A stretch of 64,000 nt of DNA from Marsupella aquatica. Taxonomy: Eukaryota > Plantae > Marchantiophyta. The DNA lies in NCBI GenBank assembly GCA_973895155.1, contig OZ316897.1:17890457-17954456 (forward strand). The letters run 5' to 3'. The notes under the pieces are model-generated. The model was not told the DNA's origin. It worked only from the letters and a program-made list of their open reading frames with translations, and ran no database searches. Position 1 is the first letter of the stretch. Each line of letters opens with the position of its first letter. A program made the position numbers and the translations under genes. Below, piece after piece: positions 33,180-59,958 of the stretch.

Positions 33180-36100
33180 ATGCAGGAATCTCTCCCTCTT
33201 CAGGATCAAGCTATGAGTCTAACAAACTGGAAACTAGAGAGTCTTGAGAAGAACGTATTCTTGAATGGTGATCTTGGTCAGACTCATCGAGCATTATTCC
33301 GGCAAGATCGTGTTCAGATAGGAAAACCACAAGTGACAGCACTGAGCTACTCTCAATTAAAGATCAGGAATACGGTGGACCGAGAAGCACTTGAAGCCTT
33401 GCACTGCAGCCAGAGGCAGAAGCTCTTGAGTCCTGAGAAGCAAAAGAGTCTTGTGGACATCAGGGAAAAGTGTATGTACCTAGATAAATTTCTGCCATGC
33501 ATGTGACCTAAAATACTAATATATTAATTCAGCTTTATTGTTCCAGATAATTATGAAGATCATTGGAATGTTTTTCAAGCTTAATGCCAGGCCAGTGCTC
33601 AGTGTAATAAAATAGGCAGACCCATCACAATTACGTACTGTTACAGCCAGTAAATCAGTGTATTACTAAAATATGCCTCAACTCTGACTGCAGGGATGGC
33701 AAAAATGGAGGCTTCACAGAAGAAAGACTCATTTACAAGGTTGGTCCCACGTACATAAGTATACCATAAATGGAAATAAGTGCTCTGCAGTCCCTGATCA
33801 ATTTCTTGAACTCGATTACAAATCTACAGCATATTTTTAAAATAGAATCATGTTGGAAAACTAGACTCACTTTTGTCAAATACACATTATTTGGTACATA
33901 AAACTACATTTTAAGCTCACATGTTACACAATTTGATTCTACACATATAACACAGCTTGTGTAGGTACTCTAGGTTGTGCCTATTTCTAGACTCAGGTAT
34001 AGCGTGTTAATCTTGGGGTTAATCTATTTTCGATTCGTTTTTTGGCCTGCCCCTTGGCAACACGTACAGAGAGGTGCAGGAGCTGTTAACACCTGAGCAG
34101 CCAGGGGGGCCTATGAGACTCAAGGAGAAGTGTATGTACAGATAAACTCCTTGTTAGATATATGGATATCTGAATTGCTTGTTTTAATCACATATTCCTC
34201 TATACTGTTCTCTTATTTGCCGACTGAAATGACCTTATTTATCCCATAAGTTCTGCTTAGTATGTATTGAACAACAAGATCCTATTTCTTTGAAAGCGCT
34301 GTTGAGAGGAGGATTCAAGTTCACTGAGAGATTCAGTGTCCCATTTACTGTCTCTAGAATTTTCCAGGTAGGGTTGACCCCACCCATCTCACCAGTTTCG
34401 TCTATTAAGCGCGCGCCTTGATATATTCGTACTGCAGGGATGGCACAAATGGATGCTTTGAAGGCTTCAGTGAAAACAAAGGCATCCCTGAGGTTGGTTC
34501 CACTAATTTAAGTCCAGTGTAAATTTGTTAGAGACACGATGCATTTCTTGAGGTAGTTGGAAAAATTTCAATTCACCATAAAAGGACTCTATTAGATTAA
34601 TCTGATGAGCTAGTCTGACTTTTGGATTATGATAACTTTTGAATAGTGGAAAACAAGCTTTTTCCCTGGACTGCGAAATGGTTGGCGTGAGACTGCCAGG
34701 ATCCACCAAAACCACATATAAGGCAGGCAGCGTTTGTGTGGTACGTAACTTCTCCATGCCACTGTCTGTAAGTCTAAGTAAAATAATCCATATATGTGTA
34801 TGTTTGGCTCAGTAATTTGAATCATGGGTGAAGACTTCTGACCTTGGAGGACCCAAGCATCACATTTGTGTGTTTATTGAACAATTCTAGTAGTTAGATG
34901 GAATGAGCAAGTTCTGAAGTATCTTATTTTTTGCCACTATTACGCAAAGTCTCTCATGATTTCTTGTGTATGTGGTGTATATATACTCTTATGATAAATT
35001 GCAATTAACGAGGTACCTATTGAACCTTTGACCTCTTTTGTGCTTATTTATATTCAGGTGAATAGTGATGAGAATATAGTGTATCAGAGTTACATTTCTC
35101 AAAAGTACCTGATCTCCAATTACTTCACATGGATAAGTGGGATTACAAGACAGAATCTGAAGGGAGGTAGGACTTTTCAGATGCTCTTTTGATTTCTCTC
35201 GTAGTATGTGAAAGTTTTAGGCATGATAGCGTGTTATTAATCTAAGAGGATACTGAGAGAGGGACTGCATTGAGTCAGAAAGGGATACAGCAGGTGCCTC
35301 GATCGATCTTATCTTCTATCGTTCAATTCCATTTTTTGTAATTAATAATTTGCCTCAGGCTAGATAAGACCAGGATAAGACTTGGAATTGGAACGATCTT
35401 GTAGCAGGGACCCACACAACTATAGTTGTTATGACATGACTATATAGCCCTAATATCATTTAATTTGTCTTTGCAGCTCCTTCACTAGAAGTGGTTCAAG
35501 GAGAACTTTTTAGCATCTTAAGCGGCAACATCTTGGTGGGACATGACATCAAGAAAGACCTATTGGTTTGTGAAAAATCCTATTACTCAGCTGCCCTAAA
35601 AATTTTGTATAAGTTTTCAAGCTAAGTAAACTGATGGATGTTTCCTTCCATCTACCTGGTTTTCCCTGATCGAGTTTGGGCAGTGTCTTTAATTCCATTT
35701 AATGGTTTCCTTGAAGCACTCAAATTGTTAGAGGAAGCTTGTGAAGTGAATAAGGGTACGTGGAATAGGGTAGGTGCCAAATTGAGGCTAGCTTTAGAGC
35801 CTGTTTTAGAATCGTACTGGTCTTGAAGCAATAACTTATAGTTTTTCTCACCCAAAGAATTTAGTTTAAACTTGCATCTCCGGCCCGGTTTCTAAAATGG
35901 CAGGCACTTGAAATGAATCACCCAATGGTTGATCAAAGAGATACACAAAAGTTTTACATGTATGTACTTGTCCTTTATTCAGTTTTATAGTACGATGTAT
36001 TAGTTGTCCTTTTAATATCATGCATACACATATATATAAAGTGGTGTGGCCAAGGTTGGTTTTCTGTTAATGACAGATTACTCTAATTCAGGAAGTCAAT

Positions 36101-36510
36101 TAAGGTAGTTATATAATAGCTATTAATCCTAACCACCTATATTTTCAGGAAAAATTTGCCATTTGGTGAGAAAAAGACGAACCTCAAGCTTATGACACTT
36201 ATACATCTGGGTCAAAAAATCCAAGAAGCTTCCCACAGTCCGGTATGTGTGCTAAGATTTTGATCAGGTTAAACTAGTTAATTACATCACCGATATCTGG
36301 TACGTTGATTTTAAGTGAACCTACAACTCTTAATTAGTACTATATTATCCTACTTTATATGGAATGACTAGGAACTCGTGCTGAATAAGCTTAAATGATT
36401 GACTTTGAATGGGCTCATGCATTATGCAGGATGATGATGCAATTGCTACAATGCGTCTGTACCTGCTCTATGAGGATTGCATGAATGCTCAAGCTATATA
36501 TCAGCCTTGA
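33180..36510 (+). CDS. REX4/ISG20-like DEDDh 3'-5' exonuclease (N-terminus uncertain)
   Basis: Exons 34438-34492, 34647-34740 (AFSLDCEMVGV), 35058-35166 (NYFTWISGIT), 35477-35565 (ILVGHDIKKDL), 35904-35959 (HPMVDQRDT), 36149-36242 (LGQKIQEASHSP) and 36430-36510 (DDDAIATMRLY) splice in frame. All D-E-D-H-D catalytic residues are present. Confidence 0.88.
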
Positions 36511-36979: not shown

Positions 36980-39260
36980 ACCGCTAGAGAGCCTCATATG
37001 TCATATTGTCCATGGTTTTGATGTCATTCCTAAAAATGAAGGCTCACGGCATTCCATAAATGACTTACACTTTTAGACATGTGCTCAAACGATACCAAAT
37101 TACTTTGCAAATGACCAAATGAGAGACTCTTGCACCCCTTTGGGAAAATCACTCCAAAATCATAGTTACAACTTGGGAGTGTTTTACCAAAAGTTGGGGA
37201 TGCTCTACTAAATGCCAAAAATGAGGCTCCAACAAAAGCGGAAAATCTAGTGGCCCAAGGTTCATGAGTTAGATATCCTGCTCTGTGTGGACTGGGTGGC
37301 AATAGCAATTTACAACACCCTACCCCTAGGTAGCAAATCATGTTTGGAAGGCCCAACACTGTCATTTTATGATGCGCACAAATGATGACTCTTTTGACCT
37401 AGAAATGACTTTTCCTGGAGTCATTTATGGATATGACATCTCTTGGCACTGAAAAAATGACGAGAAATTTCAGTCACATGCTTCTATGACACCAATAACC
37501 TAATTGACGCCACAAATGACAATAAAGTTTAGGGTTTGATTGAGGGGGTTAGGGTACTTGGTTATATGACACAAAGTTTTGCACAAATGGAAAAGTCTTT
37601 TGTTTTGTTGGCCTGCTTGGTTCCCTCCTCCGTGGAGTCCAGATGCGCGGGATACAAAGTTAACTGTTACCAAAAAATGGTCTGACTGCAAGCTCCAAGC
37701 CTGGATAACATATTGCACAAAGGCCTAGCCTTTGAAAATCAATACCACTTATGGATAGACAACACTTATTCCTTGGCATAGTAAAGAGGGAATAAATGGG
37801 TGTCAATTATGAAGCTGCTATATGTTGAATCCACCTTTCAGGTTTTGTCTTATTCAGATTTTATGTTCAATATTTTTATCTTAATGTGCCTAAACTAGGT
37901 GAATCATTTGAATTAATTTGATTTTAAATAAAATTTTGGACCCCTTTTAATTTTAGTGCACTTAGAATATTTTGAATGTATTCCCTTCATAATTGTTTAC
38001 TCTTTCCTTTTCAACCACTCCTTAGTGAATTATTAGTTTTCTCATGAGAGTGAGAGAAATGAGTTTGAACAATGCCCAGAACAATGTGCACATTTGGTGT
38101 ACTAAGTTCCCCTCCTAGTTTCTTATATAAACTTTGTACGGTTTTAATATATTGAGTTAATTGTCATTACCTAGAAGCAAGGGAAAATCTGTAGTGTATG
38201 TGCACAACTCTTTAGTACCTTTGTACTTTATTGGTCATAATGTATTTTTTATTGCATGTGTACTATGTCACTCACTCTTAATTAACATATATTAATTTCT
38301 TGGCATATACTTTACATGTACCTACTTTTTTATTAAAACATAAATGAATTACTACAAGGCAAAAACATCATCCTAGAACATGCCTCTGTTTTTGTCTTGT
38401 AGTGAATTATCTTGTAGACTTGATACACTTATTCTTTGGCATAGTAAAGAGAGAATAAATGGGTGTGAGTCACAACCCCCGTCACAACATAATCTATGTC
38501 TTACTTAAATGAAAGATAGGGCCACAATGAGCCACAATGAGTTTCCAACTGTAATTCCAAACTTGCATGTTATATGCCCACATGAAATATTTTACCTATT
38601 AGACACCATGTTGGATTGCTAGTGTTATTTCTATTGGGCTCCATACCACTATATGGTCATGTCAGGGCATTTGCTAGGGTTATTTCTATTGGGCTCCATA
38701 CCACAATATAGTCATGAGAAAAATACCAAAAAAACTATATAGTCATGTACGTCAGGGCATTTGCTAGTGTTATTTCTATTGGGCTCCATACCACTATATA
38801 GTCGATCATGTCAGGTCCCAAAACAGTCATATGTTGTTTTTGAGGTCATTTAGTATTGTTTCCAATATGACTAGTATGATCAAGTTTAAACACAGACTGA
38901 CATTTGTAGAGTTCTTACATAAGTCATTTGGCACCGTCGCCTGAAATGACTTCTTCAACTTAAAACACTGATACATATGACAAATCAAGTTTTTGCATTA
39001 TGTGTCATTCACGGTGACGGTTATAAATGACTATTATTTCAGAATCCTGTCATTTTGGCATTCCATGTCATTTGGGTCAGGTTTTTGAATAACTCCATTT
39101 TCAATGGTTACTAGTCATATCAGTTGTGCTGTTATTATAGACAGTCATTTGTATGACATTTTTGTGTTGTCATATATATATATATTTCTGTCAATCATTT
39201 ATATATATTCACATGTCATTTAATATGTCATGTCATAAAAGGCCCTATTTTCTATTAGTG
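36980..39260. mobile_element. CACTA-type terminal region (right end ...TTTCTATTAGTG) with dense ATGAC/GTCAT subterminal motifs
   Basis: TAGTG (reverse complement of CACTA) at 39256-39260, preceded by many GTCAT/ATGAC motifs at 38640-39240. A similar cluster lies at 36990-37530. Left end not securely identified. Confidence 0.6.
38350..38404. mobile_element. 55-bp minimal CACTA derivative
   Basis: TACTACAAGGCAAAAACA ... TGTTTTTGTCTTGTAGTG inverted repeats flanked by a 3-bp AAT direct repeat. Confidence 0.7.
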
Positions 39261-39945
39261 TGATTAATGCCCTCAAGAATTTGGCCAATGAGTAGAAATG
39301 TAATAATGGCTCCGTACCAAGTAGGCTCCCCCACTGCAACATGGAAGAAACTCGGGACCATAGAACTAGCTCATAATTTGTACACGAGTTTGGGGTATCC
39401 TTAGACCAGCAAGAAGCCAGTTTGAGAAAGTAAATGAAATGCTAACAAGCATTTCCAAAGGAGAACCCCTTCAAAATGTTCATATCAAAGGTTTTTTTAG
39501 GATGGAAACTCCGAATCTTCCTCCAATGGAATTCCTCGGTTTATTTTCAAGGTCTGAACTAGGTCAATTTCAAGAAGATGGGCACAATCTTGAGAAAGAT
39601 CAGCAAGCAAGGCTCATGGAAATGTATCGTGAAGCTTAGAGTTAGCTTGATTCCTGTACGTGCTTCCTAGTGTTTTGGTCTGGTCAAAGGCATGTCATAG
39701 TGGTCTTGTTTGTCGGCAAGGACGTTTGGCCAAGTGTGTTGAGCATAGACAACAACTGCAATAGCAAGCCCATAAACCATCCAATGCACAAGTATCAACA
39801 TCGAGAGATATACATGTGGTTCACCTTCGGGCCATGCTCAGGCGCTCTGTCCATGGGAATACACAATGGTCTAGAGTCTAGTGGTGTTGTTCCTAATGGC
39901 TATAATCTCCCGCAAAAAGTGTTTGGGATTTTCTCTATGCGGACC

Positions 39946-40914
39946 TCAATAGTCCCTTCCTACAAATGCTTTAGCAAGTGACGTGACAAGTGCATCGTCA
40001 AGTTCTGCCTCAGGACGTAAACTACATATACGATGCATCACGTTCCAAGGAATCTCATTGCTATTGAGGTCCAACACACTATGCGTAAACTGTGACTTCC
40101 AAATTTTTGTTGCACATCTCTTACTACGTTGATCATAAGTAATTTCATTTTTTACCTTGTCTCTCTTTATGTGCAATAGAGACCACAGTGGAGAGTTAAG
40201 AAGAAGATAACATCTAATGTCACTTGCATGGGATAGTTTCTCAAGACAAGGCCAAAGAATTGTTAGAAGAAAATTATCTCCACCATTGGCATGCGTGTAG
40301 GGCACTGGAAATAGTCTGGTCATGCTTGGGTTGGCAAATGCCTTAAGGGGGGAGTCATCCACAAGGAGGGTGTTGGCCCGGGTGTTGGTTTCATCATATA
40401 GATTTCCAAATCCACTCCATACCACCCGAAAATCCTTCAGTAGCACATTTGCCTTTCCGTTTGTAATGTCATGCCTTTGAATGCCTGTGTCAAAGGCTTC
40501 CACTTGTGTGAATACAAACTTAAGTTTCAACCGCTCCTCAGCAGTGAACATCATGTTCAGCATTTTCACTGTTCGATGTACCCCAGCACATGTCCAAATT
40601 GCAACGTCAAATCGGTCAAAAACCAACTTTAGAAACTCATGGAGCCCTGGCCTTTCTGTGTACATGCGACTAATTCCATTTTTTCTATCCCAATGCACTC
40701 CACTTGGGATCAAAAAATTTCTGGATTTGCCCTTGCTTTGGAATTCAACTGAATCCCAAAGTATTTTGTTAAGATCCAAAATCAACAATTTGCGCTTGAT
40801 GGAACAAGGTCTTGGTTTTGCAAGTGCAACAAATACCAATCTTAGAGATAAAACCACATTTGAAGTTTGGATAGAGATCATCTCTGTCAATCCAACACAA
40901 GTGGCCAACCACAA
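39946..40914 (-). CDS. FCP1/NIF-family HAD phosphatase-like protein
   Basis: RKLLILDLNKILWD (motif I variant), ERPGLHEFLKLVFDRFDVAIWTCA, LLKDFRVVW, NTLLVDDSPLKAFANP. Start uncertain; candidate acceptor at 40926. Confidence 0.85.
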   Translation of the reverse strand: MWLATCVGLTEMISIQTSNVVLSLRLVFVALAKPRPCSIKRKLLILDLNKILWDSVEFQSKGKSRNFLIPSGVHWDRKNGISRMYTERPGLHEFLKLVFDRFDVAIWTCAGVHRTVKMLNMMFTAEERLKLKFVFTQVEAFDTGIQRHDITNGKANVLLKDFRVVWSGFGNLYDETNTRANTLLVDDSPLKAFANPSMTRLFPVPYTHANGGDNFLLTILWPCLEKLSHASDIRCYLLLNSPLWSLLHIKRDKVKNEITYDQRSKRCATKIWKSQFTHSVLDLNSNEIPWNVMHRICSLRPEAELDDALVTSLAKAFVGRDY

Positions 40915-43515
40915 AGAAAATATATCTGCATACTGATCAGATTCATTGAGAAACCGTAAAGAGGAGATGGATATTGATACTGATGCTCTAATTGTTAAAC
41001 TTGAAGTATAATTATACAGACTATATTATATCAAATTGATAAGGTCACATCGCTCAATCTAGACCTTGGCTAACAATGCGATCCATATTCATCAATCAAG
41101 ATATCATCACCGAGTTCTTGTTGGATCTCATAATTGACATCGGAGGTACTCTCCTCTACCCAATAAGGTGCAGACCAAACCGGAGTTATCAATCCCAATT
41201 CTCCACTTCTATAAGTTGGATCTTTCTTGTGCTTTTTGTACGAGTCATTGTTCAAAATTGATTGAGCAGCATCCAACGCAACTTCAGTTCCTACATCGGG
41301 TCCACTTTTCCACACGTAACATTGACAATCATATTCAAGTGACTTATATCCAGTTGATCCTACTCTCTTCCCTTTCTTTTTTGAGAGTGGAAGGATAACA
41401 GGACTTCTTGATTGTGATCGAACAAACACCAATTTGTCATCAGAAGCGGAAAAGAGTGTATTGGGACAAATTGAAGCACCTGCCTGGTTGTCAGCAGTCG
41501 TGGATGCACTTGCTTCATTCACGGGAATGTCAGCTATTTGGATGGGCTGTGGTCTCAATCCCAATGTGTCGAGTTCATTGGACTCACCATGCCTCTCCGC
41601 ACCTTGATTGAGAAGGTTGTTTGAAGAAAGTTTTTCAAAAGTATCAACTTCCATCTCTTGTCCAGGCACTTGTGGATGGAGACCATCTCTATCCAAGTTA
41701 TCATCATATTGGCCCTCGTTGGGGCCCATGGGGGTAGCATCTATAATTGGTGAACTACAAGGTGCAGATCCAACAATCATATCGTCGTCCACAAGGTCAA
41801 TATTTTCACCCTCGCCAACTCGGTCATCCAAATTCTTCACGTATGCCTCTGATGGCCCATCGTCTTTGACTGATTGGTCAGCTCCATCTTCTTGATCACC
41901 ATCTGATTCATCCTCAATAGCAACAGTGGCAAAAGAGGGTTCCCAATGTCTAGAACTTCCACCGACATAGTGATCATAACGATCTTTGATGGTGGGAACC
42001 TTCTCACAAAGGAACGAAGCGTATGCTTCCACAAAATGTCTCTCATGTTGAGAGTCACAATAAACAAAACATTCACGTTGAGAAAAAAGGGATGCCTTCA
42101 TCACTTGACCGCCAGAGAAAAAGTCAAGAATCAAATCCCCCGGCTCGGACAGTGTTTGGATGATCTTTTGGATCATCCGTGTGGGTTTGGTGTGAGGATT
42201 CACCCACCCACCCCGAGCGCCGACAATCTCAAATCGAGGTGCCATGTGCAGAAGGATTGCCGCCTCTTCTAGGGTCATCATATTTTTTAGATCTTCATGC
42301 AATGACTCCTCCTCCGCGTCCTTGGCCTTTCCCTTTCCCTTGACCTTCTCAACCACGAAATCAGTATCCTTTTCACCGTACACCCATTTTGGCTTCATTT
42401 GGTTGGGCTTGAACACTTCATCCCAACTGACGTTCTCCTCGCGAGAAATTCCGGCAAAGATAACCTCTTCTATTCCTCCCTTCCAACATGAGTCCTGAGG
42501 GTGAGGTTGATCATCTCGGTAATAACTCCCATACTCAATGTGAATACTCAGAGTTTTTGAATGTCCTAATTTACGAAGAGCACTTAGGACATTCAGTACA
42601 AGATAACCCGGATGGACAGTTATCATCACAACAATGGTAGGATTCCGTGGTAGCTCTACTATATATTGGAAGAGGACCAAAATCTCTACTTCAGTCCACT
42701 CTTTTTGTTGAAGTCGGCTGAAATCAACAATTGCAAGAGGGCATGTTGGAGATTGTTCTTCCAACGACTCCGGATCCACAGTTTTCATTAGGTTGTTACT
42801 AAAAAATGTGACCCACGGCTGGGTCTGAGAACTTGTCCCACCGCCAAACTTTTGACAGTAAATATCATCTAGATGCATCACCAATGTCATTGGCAATATC
42901 TCACTCTCCTTTGTATGATTCGACTTCAACAAATTTGTCAACCATACATCGCCAGCTGCTCTTCGGCACCTGTTCAACTCCGAATCGGGACCCAATAATG
43001 GGAGGACTTCAATCACTTTAGCCCAATCAGTATCTGTTGGGAAGTGTTTTGGATCCTTCTTGAAGTAGTAATCTCCAATAAGAGACTTCAATTTGATCAA
43101 TATCTTCACCTCCTTTGCAAACTCCTCCATCGCTGGAACATCTGACTTATTAGTTGGATCTTTCTTCAATAAAATCTGACCCGACTTCACCTTGTTCAAA
43201 ATTCTGGTCAAATCTCTATTTGAGATTTCACCATCAAAACAACAAAACATGGCGACGGTTATCGGCTTTTCGGACCTTTTGTTTCCCTGTGTACTAGCCC
43301 CATCAGGAAGTTTTCCATCAATCCACATCTGGCACACTAACCGCCATAACTCGAAAAGATCATTCTCGGCAAAAAGTAACCAGTATACATTTTTCAAGTC
43401 TTTTCTCCCCATGGTCATCCTTGCCAATGCCAGATAATCCTACAGTCAAAAATTAGGGAGAATGTTGTAAGTTATCTACAATCAATGAGATTTGACAACA
43501 CACAATCGCTTGCTT

Positions 43516-43692
43516 GGACAGAGACCATCTCCGTCCAAGCCATAACCAAAAGTAGAATGAAGTAAAATCTACAGAATGGAAGGTCTCACTCTTGGACAGA
43601 GACCATCTCCATCCAAGTCATAACCAAAAACATATTGAACTAAAATCAATGTAACGGACGGTCACACTCTTGGACAGAGACCATCTCTGTCC
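43516..43692. repeat. Three 21-bp palindromes at 78-bp period in the ParB-MTase intron
   Basis: GGACAGAGACCATCTC(C/T)(G/A)TCC at 43516, 43594, 43672. Confidence 0.9.
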
Positions 43693-45398
43693 AAACAAGA
43701 AAAATGTTTCTCACCTGAAATTTTTTACTCTCTTGGGCGTTTGATTTGTTGTCCCCGTGCTTTGGCTTTCTTGGTCTTCCAGTTTCAAGGAATTGTTTTC
43801 TTGCATGAACAATTGTATCTTTGAAGCACGATTGAAACACCATCGAAGAATTGATGGCATTTGATCTCATTGAGTGCTCAACCAGTATAGCCGATGGCGT
43901 AAGGTCTGACAATAATCTAGCCTTCCTATATTTTAACTTTTTTGCCAAAACTGTGAGCTTGGCATCAGTTTTGGCCCACTCAAGAACCCATTTGGCCGCC
44001 CTAGCAGAATGTTGCCCACTGACGGCAAGGAAAACAATCTCGCCTCTCTTCACTCCTGCAAGAAGGTCTTTGCGGTCGTTCTCCGTGCTGTCAAAATGAA
44101 GCAGCTTTCTAAGTTTTGGATTGTAAGGAAGAAGGTCCGCAACGTGAGGTTCATGTCCAGGGTTTTTCACCATGGATTCGGCTATGTGCTTCACATGGGC
44201 ACTGTTGAGCATCCTGTAACATAACCTTGCCGGAGCTGGATAAATTTTCTCCACTGGAATAGAAAATATTTCATTTATCCCAAAAGTATAGTACTGCTCT
44301 AGTATTCTTTGGAGAACATCATTCCCTTCTAAGACCTTCTTCTCCTCCGGGGCATCAAGTTTGTCTCCCTCATCCTCTGGGAGCATCTGTACGTCCGTCG
44401 GAGTTGACCGCGCAATAGTCTTGTCAGTTTTATGGTTCTTCTTTACTGGCTTCTTCTCGGGTTCCTTCGACAGTGTCTCAGTTTTCTTGTGCTCCTTCTT
44501 CTCTCTTTGTCTTCGCTTCCCTACCACTTGTTTGGAGGCTGTCCCGGCCGTTGTTCCTGCAGTCCCGGTTGTTGTCTCCTGAGATATTTTTCTAGGCTTC
44601 GGAACTTCTTTGTCAACAACTACTGGAGGCTTGTTCACCACTACTGGTGCAACATTTGTAGGCTTGTTCACCACTACTGGTGCAACACTTGTAGGCTTGG
44701 GTAATGATTCTACCCACTTTTTTGCATTATCCATTGCAAACTCCTCCGCAAATATAATTTTCTTGTCAAGGAAAACACCTGATTCCGATGATAGGAATCC
44801 TGCCTTGTCAAGCAAATTATTTAAAATCCATGTCACCGGAAATGTATAATTCCCTTGGTGTTTATGCATATTAAGCTTCACATATTGAAACCCATACATG
44901 ATGTCAAGTGGAAGAATCCCCTTCACTCCAACAGTCACCTTTTGAGTTGAATACGACTTAGGGAAAAAGCCCATTGCCAACACGCCAAGTTCTCCAGCTG
45001 CAGACCACTCAACATTGAATTATGAAGAATACGCCTTTGATGGTAGATGTAGTTTAACCCATCATATCCTTTCATGGAGCTCAAGAATGACGGAAACAAA
45101 CACTCTTCCTTCAATTCCAATGAAGACTACAGGTCCGAGTACAAGAGTCTCCTGATCTGTAGTTCTGACCTTTATGCACAAAATGGGATCCCGTCTCGTT
45201 GACATGCTAAGGAAATCAAAATCAACTCTGGAGAACTCAAGGCCCCAACAAAAATCTTCTTTGCTCTGCTCCAACAAGACTCCCTCGGAGCAATCTGCGT
45301 CTGAAATCTGTGGTTTCAATGCATTTAGATAGCTCCCTGCAATAGTCCCATCTAGGCATATTAGTTTGGAAATCTTACTTTTGTAATTGACAAAAATT

Positions 45399-45733
45399 GG
45401 ACAGGGATCATCTCTATCCTCTATTTGGACAGCGATGATCTCTGTCCAATTTGTAATAAAGATCATCTCTGTTTGATGAGAGGATACTAACGATCGTTAT
45501 TATCATCTCTATCCTCTACTTGGACAGGGATCATCTCTATCCAATTCCTAATAAAGGTCCTCAGCATCGTCTGATAGGACATCCTCTATCATCAGTTTGG
45601 AAATAAATGATATCTATGCAATTGGACAGGGATGATCTCCATCCATTTGGATAGAGATCATCTCTGTCCAATTCCTAATAAAGATGGCTATCTTCTATTT
45701 GGACTCTACTTGGACAGGGATCATCTCTGTCCA
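45399..45733. repeat. Cluster of the 21-bp palindrome
   Basis: GGACAGGGATCATCTCTATCC-type copies at about 45399, 45427, 45522, 45623, 45649 and 45712, plus half sites. Confidence 0.85.
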
Positions 45734-47139
45734 CCACACAAATATTCAACTTGTTACTGGGATACTCACTTGGATTGAGCGATTGAAAGGCTCTGGAATC
45801 CTTGAGGGCCATCTCCACCACGTCCTCAATGGATGAGAGGTCTGTCTCCTCTGTTGGCTCACTGACGAGACACACTGGAATAGGTCTAGATGGCTCCATC
45901 GTGTGACACGTGGCCTTATGGACACGTGGAGGATTGCAGAGCGTTAGATCTAGGGCAATTAACGTGGCGGCTATGGGGATAAACTTTAGTGCGGAGGCAG
46001 AGCGAAGCAGTGCAGAGGCGTCGGAGCGAAGGAGATTGGAAGCGAATGAGGTGGAGGAGCGAGCAAAGGAGCGCAAGAGCAGGAGTGGAGAAGAGGAGGA
46101 GCGGACGGAGGAGGGAGGAGAGCGAGCGAGGAGCGAGGAGGGAATGAAGAATGAGGCCCAAGTGGGACCTCCTGCCTCCTTTACCCCCCCGAGGCGAGGC
46201 AAGGCACACTGAACACGTGGGAGGCCAAGGCGAGTGGAAAACCCTAAATGCATCAAAGTGCAGCGCCCGACCTAATCCACTCGCCGTTGCTTAAGGCTGG
46301 TCACGCATCGCCTTATCCATAAGGGTGATCTTCAACAACTGGTATAAGATACTTTGGGTTGTCCGGTTGGTCCTCATTTGGTATTTTCATTTCTAGATTT
46401 TTGTTCTGTTCCTCAACCAGGTCCGTTCATTACGGAGCCCCATTGAGACACTCTTGTTTTCCAGACAGAACATCTAGTTTTAATTTCTTCCACACCCCTG
46501 AAGCATTTAGTTTACCAGGTTACTGATAACTACCCCTTCAACACAGTATTTTAATCCTGGGTTTGACAACATAAACTAAATTGAGTTTTGGGTTCAAGAA
46601 TCATTTCCATTACAGGTAACTTTAAACCTAATTATAGAATTGTAGCATATTCCATTGATATCCACAAATTTAGGAATTGGTCAATTGCAAGCTTGAGGGG
46701 GGCGAAAAGGATATCCAATTTCTCCACCAAAAGGATTCTAGTCCTTCCCAATTTACAAGGGGTGGACAAGGTGTTACACCAAATGGCTAGGATTAGTTTG
46801 TTGAGATTGGATGGTGAGATCTTGCATGCCAAGTCTTTGGAAGTGTGTCCAGGATTTTAGGAAGTCCCAATCTTCTTGGAAGTGTGCACAACAATTTTGG
46901 AAGTGTGTCAAACCTTTATGGAAGTGGTGTTCAACTAAATCTTTATGATCTTTGAGTCCTTTTTCTCTCCTTTTTGAGCAAATCCTTTTTGCGTCCTTTT
47001 GCCCCCCTCAATCTTGCAATTGACCAATTACTATATCTAAGTTAAGGTTGAAGTGAAAAAATCCCAGCCCAACTCACGATTGGGATAATCTCAATCCAAC
47101 CGTTCTTTGCTCAAACATTAAATTAGTGTGTAGAGTCAA

Positions 47140-47790
47140 TTGTCCGTACAGGGGTCATCCCTGTTTGCTATCTGGATAGGGATCATCTCTATTTGCTGTT
47201 TGGATAGGGATGATCCTTGTCCAATATTTGGATAGGGATGATCCCTGTCCACCGTAGAGTACTGTAGAGGACCATATGAACTATAGCACTTTATTGGATC
47301 CTCTACAGTTTGGATCCTCTGGTTGGATAATGATCCGTATTCGCCGTTTGGATCCTCTGGTTGGATAATGATCCGTATTCGTTGTTTGGATGGGGATGAT
47401 CCCTGTCCGCCATTTGGATAGGGATGATCCCTGTCCACCATTTGGATAGGGATGGTCCCTGTCCGCCGTTTTGATAGGGATGATCCCTATCTACCCTTTC
47501 AATAGGGATCCGTGTCCGCGGTCGTTCTCCGGATGATCCCTGTCCGCCGTTTGAGGTATTTGCTTGATTGGACCCCAATATGAAAAGTTTCCTTGAATCA
47601 TCCCTGTCAGTTGTTTGGACAGGGAATAGACCCGATCCACCATTTGGACAGGGATCAGGCGTGTCCGCCTTTTGGACAGTGACAGACACTATTCGCCGTT
47701 TAGGCAGGGATGATCCTTGTTCGTCGTTTGGACACTGACAGACCCTATCCGTCGTTTGGACAGGGATCATCCCTATCCGACGTCTAAATT
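47140..47790. repeat. Array of the 21-bp palindrome GGAYAGGGATSATCCCTRTCC with ~7-bp spacers (28-bp period)
   Basis: For example TTGGATAGGGATGATCCCTGTCC-ACCAT-TTGGATAGGGATGGTCCCTGTCC-GCCGT; well over ten variably degenerate copies. Confidence 0.9.
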
Positions 47791-47970
47791 GGGATCAGGG
47801 ATCTTAGGGCTAGATAGGGACTTTTTGGGGACCTATTATTTTGCTTGATGGGGATAATCCCGATATGCGCACTGTCCTTGGAGAGCGTTGACACCTATGT
47901 GCTTCCTAGTTGGGACCATTCTTAACTAATACTTTACATTTAAAATTGTGCAGGTGAATACGTTATAGGA

Positions 47971-50900
47971 ATGACCGGAATATTTTTTAGAGGAGACAAT
48001 GTGATATTGACAAATGATGGTTACGATGTTGCAAGCGGGACAGTTCAAAAAGTCAACCCGCAAGATAGTGTTCAAAAGATATTGTTGAGAGAGAATCGAA
48101 TGGGAGTTCTCATTGAGAAAGTTTTTGACCGAAGCACAAAACTACCATTTCCGATGCCTCGGGCACAAAACCTTTTTGATGCCATTGATTCTTGCGTTAT
48201 TTGGGATTTGTCTTGCGCATATCTATCAACGACAACAAATTCTCAAAAATGCATTAGTGTAGGTAGTTGTTCAAATAGACCCGAGAGTAATTTGGAGAAA
48301 AATCCAATTGTAGAGGAGGACTCATCGACCACTCCGAGGCAAGGGGATGAGGTTGAAATGTTCATCTTTGGGTATTGTGTAGCCCTTGGAGTTGTTTTCA
48401 ATACAAATCCAATGGAAAGATGTCACAACATTTTACTTGGTGAATCACGGATCAGTGTGAGGGTCACTGATGTCATTCATGGGAGTAGGGTTTTACCTTA
48501 CAAACACAGTGGGGCTGAAACAATTGACAAGGCAAAAGACTCATGGGTTCTCTGGGACGTGGCAGATATCCAAAGTAGAAAGAGTTTCTCAAAGAAGGAT
48601 GCGGGTGATGATATCAACATAGAGCGGAGTTTTGTTGTGGAGTCTCCCTTAGCTGAAATTTCTAAAACTAATTGTGACTATTTCCAACGGTCAAATTGGA
48701 TGTCAGAGTTGGTCGAACTATACATCGGTTCAGATCGAACCAATAGGGTTGCCACGGGGACCATCACTGTGCCTCAAGAAATGGTGGCGGTTGACGATGA
48801 AATGCTTGGTGAGGACCATGTAGGGATTGCTGTGAAAGATGTGGTGAAATCACAATACTTTCCCAACTTCCATAGGGGAGTAATTACTTTGGTTCGGTGG
48901 CAAATTGATTCAACAAAACTACTTGCAAATGGGAAATTTTTGTCGGACATTTTGGTTGAAGGTTCAGAGAGGATGGAGTCGGTGGATAGGGATGATCTCT
49001 ATCCAAATGTAAATGATAGGGGAATGCTGCGCACAAGGCCATACAATTTCAACAAGAGGACTCATGTAGATCCGATTGAAAAGAAGAGAAGGCTATTGGA
49101 AACCAAGGCAGTTTCAAAAACAACGGAAGCTTTGATTGATGAAATTAAAAGAGAGAATTGTTGCAAGCAGAAATGTTGTCTGACTATGCCAAGAGAAGAC
49201 ATAGAAGATATTCGGATAGAATTTCACGGGATGTCTAGTGAGTCAAAAACATCACACATTTTCAACCTCTTCCACTACAGAGAAGATGATGTTCGTGATA
49301 AGGGGCACCATGTTCTCAAGGGTATGGTCGTATGTAGACATGCATTTGCAATCATCCATGGCTTTAGCCACACAAAATATTATGACTACAAAAGGAGATA
49401 TGTGGAGGGCTGCAAAATTGGGTTTCATGGAAACACGGGCTCCATGAAAACAAGGTCAAATACCTTGCATGCACGAGCTCTGTTGGAGGATTTTTTGACT
49501 CAAAATGCAGAGCCCATGCCTCATATACCTTATGCTGGGGCTCATGGGACAGACTCCACTGAATATCGTCTTCCAGCATGTTACAAGAAGCTGAAGATTT
49601 TGGAAGATGTGAGAACAAAGATGAAGGAAGAGGGGCTTCCTCCAGTTACAGAGAATACTCTGTACAAGATTTGGAGCAAATCATTTGCAAACTTCAGTTT
49701 CCATAAAGATGGTGCATTTGCCAAGTGTACTCTTTGTTGTGAATACAAAGATAGTTTGATGCAAGAAAGAAGGAAAAAAGAACGTGCTGAAATTGAAGAA
49801 AAACGAGCGCAACATCTTCGTGAGCAAATGTCATGTAGATATGTTTACTATGCTCATCGAGTGATGGCTAAGCAACATCCAAGGGAATATCTTTGCATCA
49901 TTCACGACAAGATGGATCAAGCAAAGACGTGGATTCCAAAAATGGTCAGTACTCCTAAATCGCTTTCGGGTCATGGGATGCCGCTACCTATTGCTCTCAT
50001 AGGGATGTTGACCCACGGAAGGGATCCAGGAGTCTATGCACACTTTAGTGTCACTGGCCTTTGGCCAGGAGATGCCGATTTCACGGTGACATCCTTGGCT
50101 AAGTGTCTTCGAGACCTTGAAGAGTACAATGGAGACAAGACAGGTGACATGTTGGATGGCCTTTATTTGGAACCTCATAGACCTTTCTTTCAAGCCCTTC
50201 TTGACTTTGATGCATTTTTTAAGGGATATTTGGAACCAAAGAGTATTCCAATGAATAGGTATATTGGTTATGAAGATGCAGCCGAGAGTCAGACGGAGAC
50301 GGTCTCCACCCAACTTGGTGAGGATCAAGGAGGGGACATGCATGGGGAACAAGGCAGTCCATCTTTCAAGCCCTTGCCAAGGCACCTAACATTGCAAATG
50401 GATAACTCAGCAAAGGATAACAAAAACCATACTGTCATGGCATTTTGTAGTGAGCTTGTGAGTAGAGGAGTATTTGAAACTGTTCAAATGTCTTTTCTTA
50501 TGGTTGGTCATACACACGAAGATGTTGATGCACTCTTTTTGAAGGTATCATATCAAGTTCAGCACAAGGAAGTTGCAACTCTCCTTGCTCTTATGGCAGA
50601 GGTTTGGGAATGTGAGAGCATTCATCCAGTTCCCAGATTGATACAAGAAGTTGCATCTTACAAAGAATATCTTCAAACTTTCAACGTTAAAGATATTCAA
50701 GGTCACTCAAAACCTGTATCATTTCTTTTCTCTATGAGAGATAATGTACCAATATTTCAGTATAAGTCCCATGTAAAGCAAGCTTGGGCTCCAATTGGTG
50801 GAAGGTGCATTTGGGCAACAGATCTGACAACAAATTCCCTTCTTTTACCTAGTGGAGAGCCCTTAGCTAAATCCATTGGAGAGATACACAAAAAATCTGA

Positions 50901-51714
50901 AGAGATTATCCCATTTCTTACCAAGTACTTTGATTTTTTGAGAAGGAGTTGCACTGATGAGACATCTATAGCATATAAGGAAAGATTTCCTCTTGTGAAA
51001 TATTGGGAGAGAATTGTGGAGTTGTTGACAAATGGGCTTGCACTAGAAGGGGAGGGAAGTACTCAATTTCCCTTGAAAAATGGATTTTGGCCTAAGACTA
51101 ACCATGGCACTGGTTACAAGGTCAACCAACCAGATCAAAGTGATCCTCCAAGTGAAGATGAGGAGAATGCGGAGATGACGGCTCTTCAAAATGAGGTCTT
51201 GGAAGAGACGGAAGATCAAGCGGCACCATTTGTTGGATCTCGAGCTGAGAGAGAACAAGGACGGTGGATTCCCCTACAGGATATTTGTCAAGGGAACTTT
51301 GTATTTCTTCGACCCGAGGATGATTGGGAGAATAAAAATGGTGGAGGTCATTTCTGGTTGGTGAGAGCTTTGGGTTCGGTTGACCCTAAGCATGAAGTCC
51401 CAACTACATCTCCAACAAACCCTCCTCTGCCTCAACAATATGCTCCAATGTTTCCAGTCGAATGGTGGAGGCCTAAACACTCTAAACTTGATGTGACTGA
51501 GAGTGCACGGTATCTAAACTGCTTCATGTCCACTAAGACATGGGAGTGAGATCCAGGGTTTGGTGAGAACGCTCAACATTGGCAGTATGCAAATTTTGCA
51601 ATGTATGGTTTTAAATCTGGCATGAAAGAAGAAAACATGGCGGGCAGAGGTTTGAAGATTCCTCAAAATATTCTACAAACTATCCAAAGTTATCTCCAAA
51701 GGATGGACAAGTAG
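47971..51714 (+). CDS. Sola-type DDD transposase with three N-terminal Tnp1/EnSpm-like repeats; TGA at 51547 probably premature (frame stays open to TAG 51714)
   Basis: CCKQKC..VCRHAFAIIHG, FAKCTLC..H, LCIIHDKMDQAK, LTLQMDNSAKDNKN and SFLMVGHTHEDVDALF are transposase core motifs. The frame continues 54 codons after the TGA (DPGFGENAQHW...QRMDK*). Confidence 0.75.
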
Positions 51715-51959
51715 ACTTAGTTGTTACTTGTAAAGCTATAATAATTATTAAATAGATAGTTACTTAGATAGTAACAAGTACCTACTAGTTATTTACTATT
51801 TTAATAGTTTTAATGTGAGACCATGCCATTGAGTGTTAGTTATACTATCTCCTCATTTTCTAAACTTTTGATTGTTATGAATATGAATGTTTGCTTTTTT
51901 TGCATAATTAAAAATATTTTTCTATTCATTCCTTTCTTTTAAATGATTATAATAAGAGT

Positions 51960-52317
51960 TGGTACACTTTTTAGGCCAAATGTACACTTTGTTGCACTCA
52001 AAGCTACACTTTCTAGACCAAATGCACTTAAATGTACACTTTTAAAGCCAAATGTATGTTTTTTTCACTCAAATGTACACTTTCTAGGCCAAATGTACTC
52101 AAATGTACACTTTTAAAGCCAAATGTACCTATTTTGATGTTCAAATATACACTTTTCATTGCCCAAATGTACACTCTTTAGGCCAATTGTACACTTTTCT
52201 ATCCCCAAATGTACACTTTTCATTGGCCAAATGTACACTTTTTCAAGCCCAAAAGTACACTTTTCATTGCCCAAATGTACATAAATAAAATAATAATACA
52301 CTTTTAATGAATAGGCT
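51960..52317. repeat. Subterminal tandem AAATGTACACTTT repeats and candidate right terminus
   Basis: More than 10 copies of (CC)AAATGTACACTTT. Ends ...ATACACTTTTAATGAATAGGCT, the reverse complement of 61154-61180. Confidence 0.75.
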
Positions 52318-52320
52318 GAT

Positions 52321-52440
52321 TCTTGTGTATTCCTATGGACGTAGCCTCATGTGGAGGTGAACCACGTATCTCTCTGTGTCGACTATTGTGCGTTGGATGG
52401 TTCATGGGCTTGCCGTTGCGAATGTCATCTTTGCTCAACA
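52321..52440 (+). repeat. 5' LTR (3' ~120 bp only)
   Basis: Matches ~60184-60305 (GGACGTAGCCTCATGT.GAGGTGAACCAC...TTTGCTCAACA). Confidence 0.9.
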
Positions 52441-52442
52441 AG

Positions 52443-52454
52443 TGGTATCAGAGC
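52443..52454 (+). promoter_or_regulatory. Primer-binding site for tRNA-iMet
   Basis: TGGTATCAGAGC two bases after the LTR end. Confidence 0.9.
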
Positions 52455-54110
52455 ATGCCTGGGAGGTGATGAGGTTTTTTCATGATGGGTTTTTTCCAGC
52501 ATTCATTATCGGTGATACATTCGGAGTTTTGTCGAATGAAACTCGAATGTGTGTGGCTGAGCGGATAGGTTAGTGAGAGGGCTTTCTAACGGTGGTTAGA
52601 ACTTGTTGATCGGTATCCGTGGTGCGGAGGAATTGAAGTTTGCATTGTTCAGGGTTTATTCATGTTCGACGGTATTTCGGGGGAGAGACCATAGATTGTT
52701 TTTTTAACGGTGTGAGCTGTGCGGTGCGGGAAATGTTGCATGTTATAGCTCAAGTTGAAGGTTGAAGCGAGCTGGTCGTTTTGGTACCTGGTTTGCTGGC
52801 GTTTGTGGAGCGAGTGCGTCGTGACGAGTGAAAGTTGAGCTCTAGTTTTTTTGACAAGTTATGGTGCATGTTTTTCCCTGAACTGGATTACTCGTCGTGA
52901 TGCTTGACTCGGAGGAAAAATACGAAGTGCTGAGGCTCAACGGAGAGATCGTGGTAAGGCGATCGTTTAGAGTCCGGGATTGGCTCTTGACGCAGAGAGA
53001 GTAAGACATAGCAGAGGTTTTTTCTTCTCTGGTGGAGTTGTAGATGTGCCGGTGCAATTTGGCAACATTTTCATGTCGGCGGTCATCACTTTTCTCATTG
53101 AAAACCAAAACGGAGGCGGTTGAGGTTTGTAACACGGCCTTTGTGTCATTTTTGGGCACATTTTAAGGTTAGTTTAGAGCATTTTTTGCCCCCATACGGC
53201 CTGTATACCTTCAAATCCTTACAAACCTACTTCACCATATGTCTCGGTGCGTTCCCCGGCCTTCCACACCCCTTTAAGCGCAAAAATGTGCTTTTTCTTG
53301 TGAAAATATGGCCCAAAATGCCATTATACGGCCCACATACGCGCGTTTTGACCCCTTTAAACCCCGTTTTTTCACATTTTTTGCAGTTTATACGCGAATA
53401 CATGCGCTTTTTTGAGGGGCTTTAAGACCCCTTTAAAGTGTTTTTTCTGATTTTTTTCTCTCCTCCTCATTGGTTGTGCCGCATCCCGGGCTCTGTGACC
53501 CTCCGTTTTAACCGCTTGGATAGGGGGAATGGCCCCCTGTGAGACCTGTTGGACTGTGCGGAAATATTCCCAAAAAATAGAGAGATGTTTTTTGGCCGTC
53601 CAACAAAGATTCCATCCACCGAAGGATAACTTTTTTGTTTCTTTTTTGGCGAGGACGTTGCCACTGGAGTTAGCAACGCGGCGCATCGATCACATCGCAA
53701 TTCCGACGAAGGGTTATTCTCCGAGGTGGTCAAAATGGGGGAGCTTTCCAAGGTTTTACCCACCTCGATCAAAATTTGAATAACTTTTCCGTCAAATTTT
53801 GATTTTGATTTTGGCTTTCAGTATTGGACTCCTAGCTTTGTGGGCTACGCGGCGGTGTTGAGTTTTGAGTTTTATGAGAAGTTTTGAAAAAGATGTTTTT
53901 TCGTGATTGTTTCATATGAGTGACTTGGAGGATACTGGAAGAATTGGCGTCGGTGGAGCTTCAAGATCGCGACAATCAGACGGAGAGTCTGAGGAGGAGC
54001 TGCTACCGTTTGAGGATGGACTAGTGTCACCGGTATGATCACCGGTGCGGCGTGCAGTGGAGGAAGCTGTACTACTACCAGAGCTATCGGTAGTGGGGAA
54101 GAAGAGGGAG

Positions 54111-57100
54111 ATGGCTAGATTTGGAAGAGTGAAGTTTGAGGTGGAAAAGTACGATGGTCGTACTGATTACTTGCTCAGGGAGAAGCAAGTGAAGGGTGTT
54201 CTGCGGGCCATGGGCTTAGCTCATCTGCTCTCTTTGCGAGAGTAGTATGATGGAGAGGAGGAGATCTCAAAGAAGCAGTCTGTGGAGATAGGAGCAGGTG
54301 ATTGTTGTCAATGTAGTGATGCTATATCTCAAGCCGCATATCATCAAGAAGCTAGATGATTATGATGACTGTGCATCACTATTCATGGCTCTAAGAGAAA
54401 AGTACTACCGAGAAGATGCGTCAGACCGGCTATACAAAAAATTTCTCTTGATGAGCCTTAGGCTCAAGGAAGGGAGCAAGATGCAAGATCACCTGGATGA
54501 GTTTGACAGTCTAGCGGTGGATCTGTCAAACCTGGGAAAAGGAGCTGAAGATGAGGGTAAGGCGGCCTTGCTTCTGCTAAGCTCCTTATCGCCGTCATAT
54601 CAGGGCTTGAAATAGATGCTCTTGTATAGAGATTTGAAGTCCATTTTGTATAATGAGGTGGTGAGCTTCTTACTGTCTGATGATGCTCAAAAGAAGCTGG
54701 ATCAATCACAGACAACATCTTCTTAGACCTGACACTGCGCTGAACGTAAATCGTGGGAGAGCTGCACAACGCTCAAGTGGACAGAACAGGTTTAGATCTA
54801 CATCACGGGGGAGATCTAAATCCAGAGTAAAATTGCAAGAGAAGAAGCCTCTTGCATGTTGGAAATGTGGCAAGTCAGGCCACATGAAGAAAGATTGTCG
54901 GGTAAAGGACTCTACCCCATCAGCTAATGCGGCATCTAGCGCACATGAGGTAGATTTACTCGATGATGATATTTTGTGATGCCATTACTTTGCCCTCAAC
55001 GTAATATCACATCAGGGGGAGATGATGGTTGGATACTAGATAGTATTTGTAAACAAGGAGCAAAAAAGGATGGATAACAAGCCCAAACTAAAAGAACTTT
55101 TGTTCCAAAAATGCAAAAAACTCAGAAATGCCCAAAAATGAACCTAAATACTATCTCTTTCTTTGCAAAATCTTCATGGATGGAAAAAATGCCCCAAAAT
55201 ATGTTATCATTTTGAGCCATTCAAAAGATAAAATGGACCATAACAAATTGTTAATCTTTGTATGATCTATTTTCAATCTTTACAATTTACACTTGCACAT
55301 GTTCAAGAGATCATTTGTCTAGTTTATCCTTAAAATACCATCTTAAAATTGATTGGAATCAAAAATATCTAATTAAAACACTTTCAAATATATACTAGAA
55401 ATTTCAATTGAGTCTCGTAATGAATTGTTTGTCTTTAACCTATCTCACACAAACCAATTACAATATTATTATTTTCAAAGTGTAACCCCTCCTTAGAAAT
55501 GATTCATGAATTCATGAGTTAATCATTTTAATATTTTTGAATCTCAACAAATTTAAGTAGCAATAGTTACTCCAACTTTCTCATTCCCAAATCTCTAATG
55601 TTCACATAAGTTTTAGTGGATTGGAATACTTATTTGCATTCACTTAGAAAGAAACTTCATTCTTAATTTTTAATTCAAACCTTGCATAGTAAAATACCAA
55701 AGTTTTCCTAGCATTTATAATACTCTTTGTCTTTATTGGAGTTGATGTTTTCTTGTACTTTATTCCAAAGTAATAATTCATTACTCTCTTTGTCTTTACT
55801 TGAGTTTGTGTTCCTTGTCAAATTCTTCATTCATAACTCTTTTTGTCTTAATTGAATCATTTTTTGTTTCTTTTTTTGTCATTTTCTTTGTCTTGATTAA
55901 TCTTTCTTTTAATTATTTTCTTTATGTTTGTATGCAATTTTTCTCTCTTTTCAAGATTTCCAAACTTGATGCCAGATTCCCTTCATGAATTCATGAAAAA
56001 GAATCTTGGATCAAGATTAAAAAATCTTGAAAACAGGGTTCATGAATTCATGAAGCTTTTGGATGCACAAGCTTCGTGAATACACTAAGCTTAGGTTTTT
56101 AAAAGGCAAAGGGCAAATTTGGGCAACAACAATCCATGATGGAAGATGAGTGAGCTATGATAGGCACATTGCAATGGGCAAGTTGCGACCAGCTGCGATG
56201 GACAAAATGACAACATGTAACCCGTAAAGGGTATAGGACCATGTGCAATTAGCAATTAAACATAGATTTCCAAGGGCATTTGAGTGTTGATTTGTGATGG
56301 GTGAAGGCTTATGATCTCTGATGTTGTTAGTGACTTTGTTCATAAAGATGATATTTTCTTGTAACATTTAATTTGTTGGTGATCTTTGAGCCCAAACTCC
56401 AATGTTGAGACTTATATTGAGGAGTTAAATTTGGAATTATTAATTATGAAAAAACTTGTGTCTGAAGTATTGTGTTAATTATGGTGTGAAAATCCAAGGT
56501 CAGGAAATATTAAATATATGATGATTTTTTGTGTTATTTTTTATGACATTTTGGAAAATCAGAATATTTTGAAAATGAGAATTAAGGCCTTGGACCCATC
56601 CTTTAAGGCTTCTTGTTTGTACCTTTCACATTTGCTATAGGAGAGAGTTTTTCAGTTCTTACACGATTTCCAACGGTTCAGTGTTGATGGGAAATGGAAT
56701 TCCATGCCAAGTAGTTGGACTTGGATCTGTGAGATTACAGATGTTTGATGGTGTTGTAAGAACAGTGCGAAATGTGAGACATATTCCTGACATGATGAAA
56801 AATCTTATTTCACTTGGAATGTTAGAAGCAAATGGTCATTAGTGGAGTTCTGCTAATGATGTTCTTCAGGTTTCAACCGATACCAAGGTTATGTTGAAGG
56901 GAAAGAGGCACAAAAATTTGTATGTTTTGGAGGGCAGAGTGGTATGTGATGAAGCCAATATAACCTTATCTCATGAGGAGACGGCCCGGCTGTGGCACTT
57001 CCGGCTAGGTCACATGAGTGAAAAAAGTTTGGCTGTACTTTTGAAAAGAGGTTTGATTTTTTAATTTGCAGTCTAGTAAGTTAGATTTTTGTGAGCATTG

Positions 57101-59743: not shown

Positions 59744-59958
59744 TTGTAGTGCAAGTAGAGTTATTTAGCAATGTGTGATTATTTGTATATATGGATTACT
59801 CATTCCTGTTTGGCTACGGCTTAGTTCTAGTTAACCCTTAGTTAACCCTTGTGATTTTTAGGGGGAGACCTGGTTTGGTGATTGTCTAGAACTTCCCGCT
59901 GAGTATTCCATATGGTTGCATTTAGTCCAGTCCCCAAGACAAGAGTCAAGGGGGAGTT

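Follow-up and report, generated by a model that had tools for sequence, protein, structure and literature searches.

What does a gene that joins a ParB-like domain to a DNA-methylase-like domain do in a land plant? The question is raised by a 64,000-nucleotide stretch of the liverwort Marsupella aquatica (assembly GCA_973895155.1, contig OZ316897.1, positions 17,890,457 to 17,954,456 of the forward strand; hereafter the window, with coordinates counted from its first letter), where such a gene lies on the minus strand at 41070-45899. We find that a multi-copy element carries it as cargo, next to a DDE-like transposase gene, and that the copy in the window is a pseudogene. The explanation that we favour, with about even confidence, is a multi-copy land-plant DNA transposon, likely of DDE type, with an accessory gene that is broken in this copy; the protein of this gene would be non-catalytic and would recognise the element itself.

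Gene model and premature stops

The minus-strand open reading frames (ORFs) at 43646-45019 (457 aa) and 41070-43439 (789 aa) are two halves of one gene. They join without a stop once 43440-43714 is excised; three shifted joins give 54-66 stops. The excised segment, intron 2, is 275 nt long, lies in phase 0, begins with GTGAGA and ends with CTGTAG, and homologs share its position. The first-exon ORFs of four homologs (P0006-P0009) read Val and then a stop soon past the shared F/Y-Q/N junction, in a metagenome locus (L001, 34% identity) this junction is interrupted by a phase-0 intron with GT..AG borders (99-207), and two Calypogeia fissa gene models (P0002, P0027) span it in one frame. The single long frame that an earlier note on this DNA had proposed is thus confirmed. 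That the two ORFs are separate products of an unspliced transcript is hardly conceivable: the nine sequencing runs that match the sequence include none of RNA and several database records contain one half alone, but the splice position is conserved in L001 and P0006-P0009, P0002 and P0027 read across the junction, and a single 1009-aa ENA record (P0162, a transcript or an intronless copy) holds both the ParB and the methylase halves. SGQHS-type and DFFSG-type motifs, discussed below, occur together in five records (P0093, P0097, P0124, P0148, P0162).

A predicted intron 1 (433 nt, GTGAGT..TTGCAG) and an ATG at 45899 extend the gene to a three-exon model of 1373 codons, in which exon 1 and intron 1 are predicted from splice signals and frame alone. 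Against P0007-P0009, the N-terminal domain of exon 2 shows 29-30% identity (E 5e-21 to 5e-28). The model comprises the following features.

45770-45899, minus strand: predicted exon 1, with ATG at 45899 (splice signals, frame)
45337-45769, minus strand: predicted intron 1, with seven palindromes (GT..AG signals)
43715-45336, minus strand: exon 2, encoding an N-terminal domain of unassigned fold, a lysine-rich linker and the ParB-fold domain (alignments)
45062-45064 and 45020-45022, minus strand: two premature stops, codons 135 and 149 of the model, private to this copy
43847-44308, minus strand: ParB/Srx-fold domain (model, see below), with SGQHS at 44006-44020
43440-43714, minus strand: intron 2, phase 0, with three palindromes in 78-bp tandem units
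41070-43439, minus strand: exon 3, encoding a helical region, the methylase-fold domain, an acidic linker and a conserved C-terminal domain
41979-42827, minus strand: beta-class amino-methyltransferase fold (model, see below)
42714-42737, minus strand: LAIVDFSR (DFSR at 42714-42725)
42183-42197, minus strand: PHTKP
42108-42125, minus strand: DFFSGG

Both stops sit inside the N-terminal domain of exon 2. In the other copies, compared as contigs over 44960-45120, both sites hold sense codons in all four runs (X1 to X4) from two studies. A different base makes up 100%, 100%, 97% and 98% of the depth at position 45022 in the four runs, and at 45062/45064 two alternative bases jointly cover the entire depth in X1 and X2 and most of it in X3 and X4. 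Because of the two stops, this copy is unable to make the long protein. Intact copies are predicted to encode a ParB-fold plus methylase-fold protein of about 1370 residues.

Two folds with altered motifs

The ParB part was folded as 212 residues from a 14-row alignment, with a predicted local distance difference test score (pLDDT) of 81. In a wide structure search, all eight chains with a Z of at least 5 among 48,161 are of ParB/Srx type, the best being PadC (7.6) and KorB (7.5). The top Foldseek rows are ParB, Noc and sulfiredoxin, with a best E of 7e-3 and none at E<=0.001. The ParB/Srx-like core described in the earlier note, with SGQHS in place of GxxR, is borne out by these structural matches. 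Among profiles, the Pfam scan returned DndB alone (E 0.089), and the NCBIfam scan of 12 proteins gave neither DGQHR nor ParB. Of 433 candidates, none is a longer protein in which a relative of the ParB part is fused, and a homodimer prediction for P0162 residues 60-470 gave no solution (score 0.00). Of 17 proteins matched by the ParB profile, 12 cover the motif; all 12 have Ser at the position of the GxxR arginine, and in 10 the sequence is exactly SGQHS. In BisD the Arg is required for nucleotide binding, according to the available part of that study (PMC12409273). Since the Arg is replaced family-wide, a ParB-style cytidine triphosphate (CTP) clamp is doubtful. In the ESM Atlas, the ParB part (43715-44350, minus strand) has its neighbours among fungal clusters, and in one of them 31% of the members carry DUF3723. 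DUF3723 is a conserved Starship cargo gene of unassigned function; it may be a ParB-fold relative, which is a lead only, as Pfam gave no confirmation, and a literature search pairing DUF3723 with ParB found nothing.

The methylase part (residues 181-520 of the 789-aa ORF) was folded from a 59-row alignment with a pLDDT of 82.5. Foldseek matches it to CcrM (E 4.7e-9), and structure comparison with CcrM gives Z 18.0 and a root-mean-square deviation of 3.4 over 216 aligned residues, other beta-class enzymes coming next. The top 20 rows of the structure search are all amino-methyltransferases, with N4CMT at Z 15.3. The PF01555 match reaches 27.3 bits against a cut-off of 26.7 and covers 42 residues only (ORF residues 415-456). 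The fold is Rossmann-like, with the place of motif IV ahead of motifs X and I, which bind S-adenosylmethionine (SAM) in such enzymes; the domain is indeed similar to beta-class N6_N4_Mtase, as had been suggested.

The structure comparison pairs model residue 25 with CcrM residue 3. The available part of the CcrM study names residue 31 as the catalytic Asp and describes Asp, Pro and Tyr of motif IV as positioning the target base (PMC10406627). This offset speaks for motif IV at the strand ending LAIVD (model 55-59) rather than at TVDPE (model 42). Strand order and spacing also favour LAIVD, which in this model is the likely motif IV register; the alternative TVDPE is likewise not DPPY. Motif frequencies were counted in 153 aligned rows, many of which may be pseudogene fragments; 110 rows with at least 30% gaps at motif IV were left out there. 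Of the remaining 43 rows, 40 retain the Asp, none has Pro at +1 or +2 and one has an aromatic residue at +3; the residues after the Asp vary by subfamily (FSR, LTH, TTS). The lack of DPPY, noted at LAIVDFSR in the window, is shared across the family, as no homolog row among the 43 has Pro-Pro. In motif I, D, F, S and G are each present in 54 of 58 covering rows and the next G in 53; the Lys of motif X is found in 60 of 61. The glycine loop DFFSGG is one residue shorter than canonical and lacks the Ser/Thr of GSGT, and the acid after the next strand beyond motif I, shifted by one place, is kept in 18 of 58 rows. The claimed C-terminal signature does resemble HPTQKP, but the structure-guided register pairs NPHTKP with it.

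The earlier note had asked whether paralogs restore DPPY and the Arg; neither is restored in other copies or homologs. Being shared family-wide, the altered motifs of both the ParB and the methylase domain go back to the ancestor of the family and do not reflect decay of this copy. With PPY lost, amino-methylation is doubtful. The option that the protein is catalytically dead and binds DNA or SAM is supported by the loss of motif IV across the family.

A profile search among representatives gave 218 proteins at E<=0.001. Named members come from Calypogeia fissa and Riccia sorocarpa, and 17 of the 30 clusters looked up bear these names. In a tree of 24 family sequences from the 59-row alignment and six phage methylases, the family is separate from the phage enzymes and includes at least three deep Riccia subfamilies; the window's sequence is nearest to P0001, P0002 and P0005, without marked support. 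The domains are prokaryote-like, as the earlier note held, and a horizontal origin is plausible, but no donor was found. Neither the tree nor a tblastn search against phages (weak methylase matches alone, best E 1e-2) points to one, and pattern scans gave 176 matches in viral contigs and 71 in prokaryote genome contigs, with no confirmed relative in either.

The element, its palindromes and its neighbours

Summed contig depth, which is not a copy number, no single contig covering the whole unit either, is 61-65 at 35001-36334 in run X1, 612-1,066 at 38336-39669 and 2,318-40,653 in all bins of 39670-52342; run X3 repeats this pattern. Within the high-depth region lie the following features.

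40867-49006: 25-bp palindromes, consensus TTGGAYAGRGA-TSA-TCYCTRTCCAA; one at 40867 (upstream of the NIF domain), one at 41672 (coding linker), three in intron 2, seven in intron 1, eleven at 47075-47780 (transposase leader) and one at 48982 (coding linker)
39946-41025, minus strand: ORF for a NIF/FCP1-type HAD phosphatase, directly 3' of the gene (PF03031, E 8.4e-14)
47944-51549, plus strand: 1201-codon DUF7869 ORF, head-to-head with the ParB-methylase gene (PF25273, E 7.8e-41)
51962-52305, plus strand: 22-bp tandem array with AAATGTACAC core, possibly subterminal, cut by a long terminal repeat (LTR) fragment at 52321

At no more than 6 mismatches, the palindrome occurs in 24 copies, none of them elsewhere in the 64 kb, and each of 20 shuffles gave 0-1 matches. 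The two introns and the transposase leader contain 21 of the 24. The palindromes recur in tandem units of 28 bp and 78 bp as well as in irregular ones, and a contig from another copy shows one more unit in intron 2. Their centre is mostly GATC or GATG. Between clusters, the identity is 0.75 in the core and 0.28 in the flanks, a difference inflated by the choice of the core by pattern. The degenerate positions of the consensus form symmetric pairs (positions 6 and 20, 9 and 17).

The DUF7869 ORF contains a CxxC and three acidic motifs (HDKMD, QMDNS, GHTHEDVD), from which we infer a DDE transposase; the motifs resemble those of Sola-type DDE transposases, and it may be Sola-like. A solved-structure search with this ORF gave no match, and a literature search on DUF7869 found nothing. 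The frame stays open for about 55 codons beyond the stop at 51547-51549 (to 51716), and the transposase of this copy may be shortened. Its N-terminal part (47960-48950) has three alike blocks (VASGTV, VALGVV, VATGTI), each followed by a stretch that looks rich in beta structure. A NIF domain follows the methylase-like domain in three gene models (P0069 from Riccia sorocarpa, P0103 and P0132), so this neighbourhood is conserved. At the place of the HAD motif, expected as DxDxT, the NIF domain of the window has DLNKIL and Riccia-type models have DVEGLL, so that this domain is possibly altered too.

Scans for terminal inverted repeats gave nothing over chance-like 18-19 of 24 matches, and no target-site duplication, which would be 4 bp long in a Sola element, was found; the ends may be truncated. 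A single-copy contig of run X1 is exact at 39586-39877 and continues with 30 non-fitting letters, making 39877 a candidate left junction. To the right lies a decayed LTR retrotransposon (52321-60305, ORF fragments at 57771-59383), which judging by its motifs we take to be copia-like. Its 5' LTR is reduced to the last 120 bp, followed by the primer-binding-site-like TGGTATCAGAGC. An inverted LTR fragment, 74-80% similar, lies at 39735-39866, and thus both element ends abut LTR fragments. Three further AAATGTACAC-type units past the LTR element (61182-61256), oriented as those at 51962-52305, may continue the right end. Farther away, fragmented minus-strand ORFs at 867-5237 have what we assume to be EnSpm/Plavaka-type transposase motifs. 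The segments 24742-27296 and 30571-30805 on one side and 62386-63985 on the other appear to be two old, largely inverted copies of a further repeat (70-85% alike), which would account for the long inverted pairs at 30.6 kb and 62.5 kb. An Rfam scan of 36000-64000 gave 0 matches.

Possible function and comparison with known systems

That a mobile element encodes a ParB-fold protein close to densely set palindromes suggests that it recognises itself. In the mechanism we propose, the ParB-methylase, NIF and DUF7869 genes would move as one element. The ParB-methylase protein of intact copies would likely be devoid of DNA methylation activity and would likely bind, as a dimer, to the 25-bp palindromes of the element that encodes it. 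By occupying the sites in the introns and in the leader that separates the divergent genes, it might keep the element transcribed or assemble it for transposition, in a mode likened to VANC on VANDAL transposons or to VirB/BisD on bacterial mobile DNA. The methylase fold could serve as a module for binding DNA, SAM or a partner, comparable to METTL14 or the inactive methylases of DIRS1 elements, a transposon-borne case described in the available part of PMC4738411. The whole path from fold to function is inferred. More tentatively, and with somewhat less than even confidence, land-plant transposons may possess a self-recognition and anti-silencing system in which ParB plus a dead methylase, by reading parS-like palindromes in the introns and the leader, preserves the activity of the element.

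Several points weigh against this proposal. The ParB-fold match is moderate (best Foldseek E 7e-3, Z under 8), the GxxR arginine of the ParB CTPase clamp is absent from 12 of 12 covering proteins, and a helix-turn-helix past the ParB core is not demonstrated, the following region being predicted helical. A profile alignment with the six phage methylases sets DPPY, at low confidence, on TVDPE, 17 residues upstream of LAIVD, and the near-invariant DFFSGG loop and motif X Lys are also compatible with a live active site. As neither terminal inverted repeats nor a target-site duplication were found, the element ends and the co-mobility of the genes are unproven. In the transposase-leader cluster, G-U mismatches outnumber A-C by 21 to 3 on the sense strand, a bias compatible with an RNA hairpin; in the other cluster the two are equal (7 to 7). 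Finally, the L001 intron, which is short and belongs to the sole homologous locus with DNA, contains no comparable palindrome at 34% identity, so the link between gene and palindromes is drawn from this window alone.

Intact copies might instead encode active enzymes whose catalytic site has been rebuilt, with the ParB domain targeting the palindromes and the methylase writing N6-methyladenine, N4-methylcytosine (4mC) or another mark. The full beta-class fold, the Asp of motif IV (40/43), the Lys of motif X (60/61), the near-invariant DFFSGG, the usual GATC or GATG at the palindrome centre and the activity proposed for an Ectocarpus protein (see below) are in line with this explanation, but the missing Pro-Pro (0/43), the nearly absent aromatic residue at +3 (1/43), the short glycine loop lacking Ser/Thr, the acid kept in 18 of 58 rows and the different residues after the Asp across subfamilies render it improbable. 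If the palindromes served otherwise, as sites bound by the transposase, as RNA hairpins or as a micro-repeat that spreads itself, the ParB-methylase protein would be some other helper, for instance in contact with chromatin or RNA polymerase together with the NIF phosphatase. This would agree with the G-U bias of one cluster, the two copies within coding linkers, the lack of such repeats in L001, the lost ParB Arg and the adjoining methylase-like and NIF domains of several gene models. We consider it rather improbable, as the sites are internal and not terminal, their degenerate positions are symmetric (6/20, 9/17) as in protein-bound operators, a ParB gene is paired with inverted repeats in red algae, and the G-U excess stems from a single tandem array, in which the units have a common origin. 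Loss of the ParB Arg together with loss of PPY favours the binding or scaffold role, for which we see an even chance, over these two alternatives; both catalytic motifs being rebuilt across the family argues for reading rather than writing.

That a horizontally acquired gene was domesticated to serve the host as an enzyme or a regulator, as with DN4MT1 in Marchantia or N4CMT in rotifers, would be compatible with the introns and with an old family in two distant liverwort lineages. However, the high repeat depth common with the transposase-like gene, the private stops, the numerous divergent and often fragmentary paralogs per genome and the missing SPPY make it very improbable. The analogy with host 4mC enzymes drawn in the earlier note is not upheld, as the gene is a pseudogene copy in a multi-copy element beside a transposase-like gene and has no DPPY; it is not a Marchantia-type 4mC enzyme. 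DN4MT1 has TSPPY and N4CMT SPPY, and both are active host enzymes in the available parts of their descriptions; neither motif is present here, and the likeness to N4CMT is that of a beta-class fold in a eukaryote (Z 15.3). The Marchantia 4mC preprint has 0 occurrences of ParB.

Among prokaryotic and phage proteins, CcrM, M.BceJIV, MboIIA, PvuII and RsrI have the same fold and motif order, whereas the family differs from beta-class enzymes by DFSR and variants for DPPY, a shorter glycine loop, 9-16% identity and introns. Phage ParB-methylase fusions (PhiCh1 and L007 ORFs) also join both domains. The ParB relatives VirB and BisD are anti-silencer and activator at palindromic sites (BisD: PMC12409273, available part). 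With them and KorB, which regulate rather than partition, the protein has in common a ParB fold that is encoded by mobile DNA and goes with palindromic sites. As far as described, those proteins need CTP and the arginine of GxxR, which is replaced by Ser in 12 of 12 proteins here.

Two algal systems come closer. In the available part of its account, Ectocarpus Sola1-1_Ec32 encodes a 1104-aa protein with ParB and N4/N6 methylase domains on the strand opposite the transposase (PMC12477816), and the arrangement in the window is the same. Sola1-1_Ec32 belongs to a brown alga and its methylase is predicted to be active, whereas here motif IV is lost family-wide in a land plant; that part of the account mentions neither palindromes nor a NIF gene, and the likeness is one of description. 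Plavaka elements of Bostrychia carry the ParB-like PAG3 with adjoining inverted-repeat arrays and the PF01555 gene PAG2 (10.1101/2025.02.11.637652, available part). Transposon accessory genes, a ParB-like domain, a PF01555 methylase and inverted repeats next to the ParB gene are common to both, but the red alga has two separate genes, one joining ParB to a 2-oxoglutarate (2OG) oxygenase and the other joining the methylase to a SET domain, and an EnSpm-type transposase. From these partial accounts, ParB plus methylase accessory genes of transposons were already in print for brown and red algae in 2025, and the land-plant case is what is new here. Literature searches, which are weak evidence of absence as they also missed both algal papers, found no such gene in a land plant that combines motif loss across its family, palindromes within introns and a NIF neighbour, and nothing relevant on a liverwort transposon with ParB and a methyltransferase. 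The locus extends such accessory genes to land plants.

For the proposed function, VANC is the closest parallel. According to the available part of PMC5735166, VANC binds motifs accumulated in VANDAL introns, and in both systems short motifs are tandemly amplified in introns and intergenic parts of the element. The VANC motifs are, however, 9-bp, same-oriented and non-palindromic, homology is neither shown nor expected, and the function of VANC is proven whereas that of the window's protein is putative. The defined 25-bp candidate site makes recognition a question for a simple binding assay, and a transformable liverwort model exists. Sequence-specific escape of DNA transposons from host silencing was shown only for VANDAL/VANC, as stated in the available part of 10.1101/2025.02.11.637652. 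If the proposed anti-silencing role is true, the element would represent a second, independent invention of VANC-type sequence-specific anti-silencing, made from bacterial parts.

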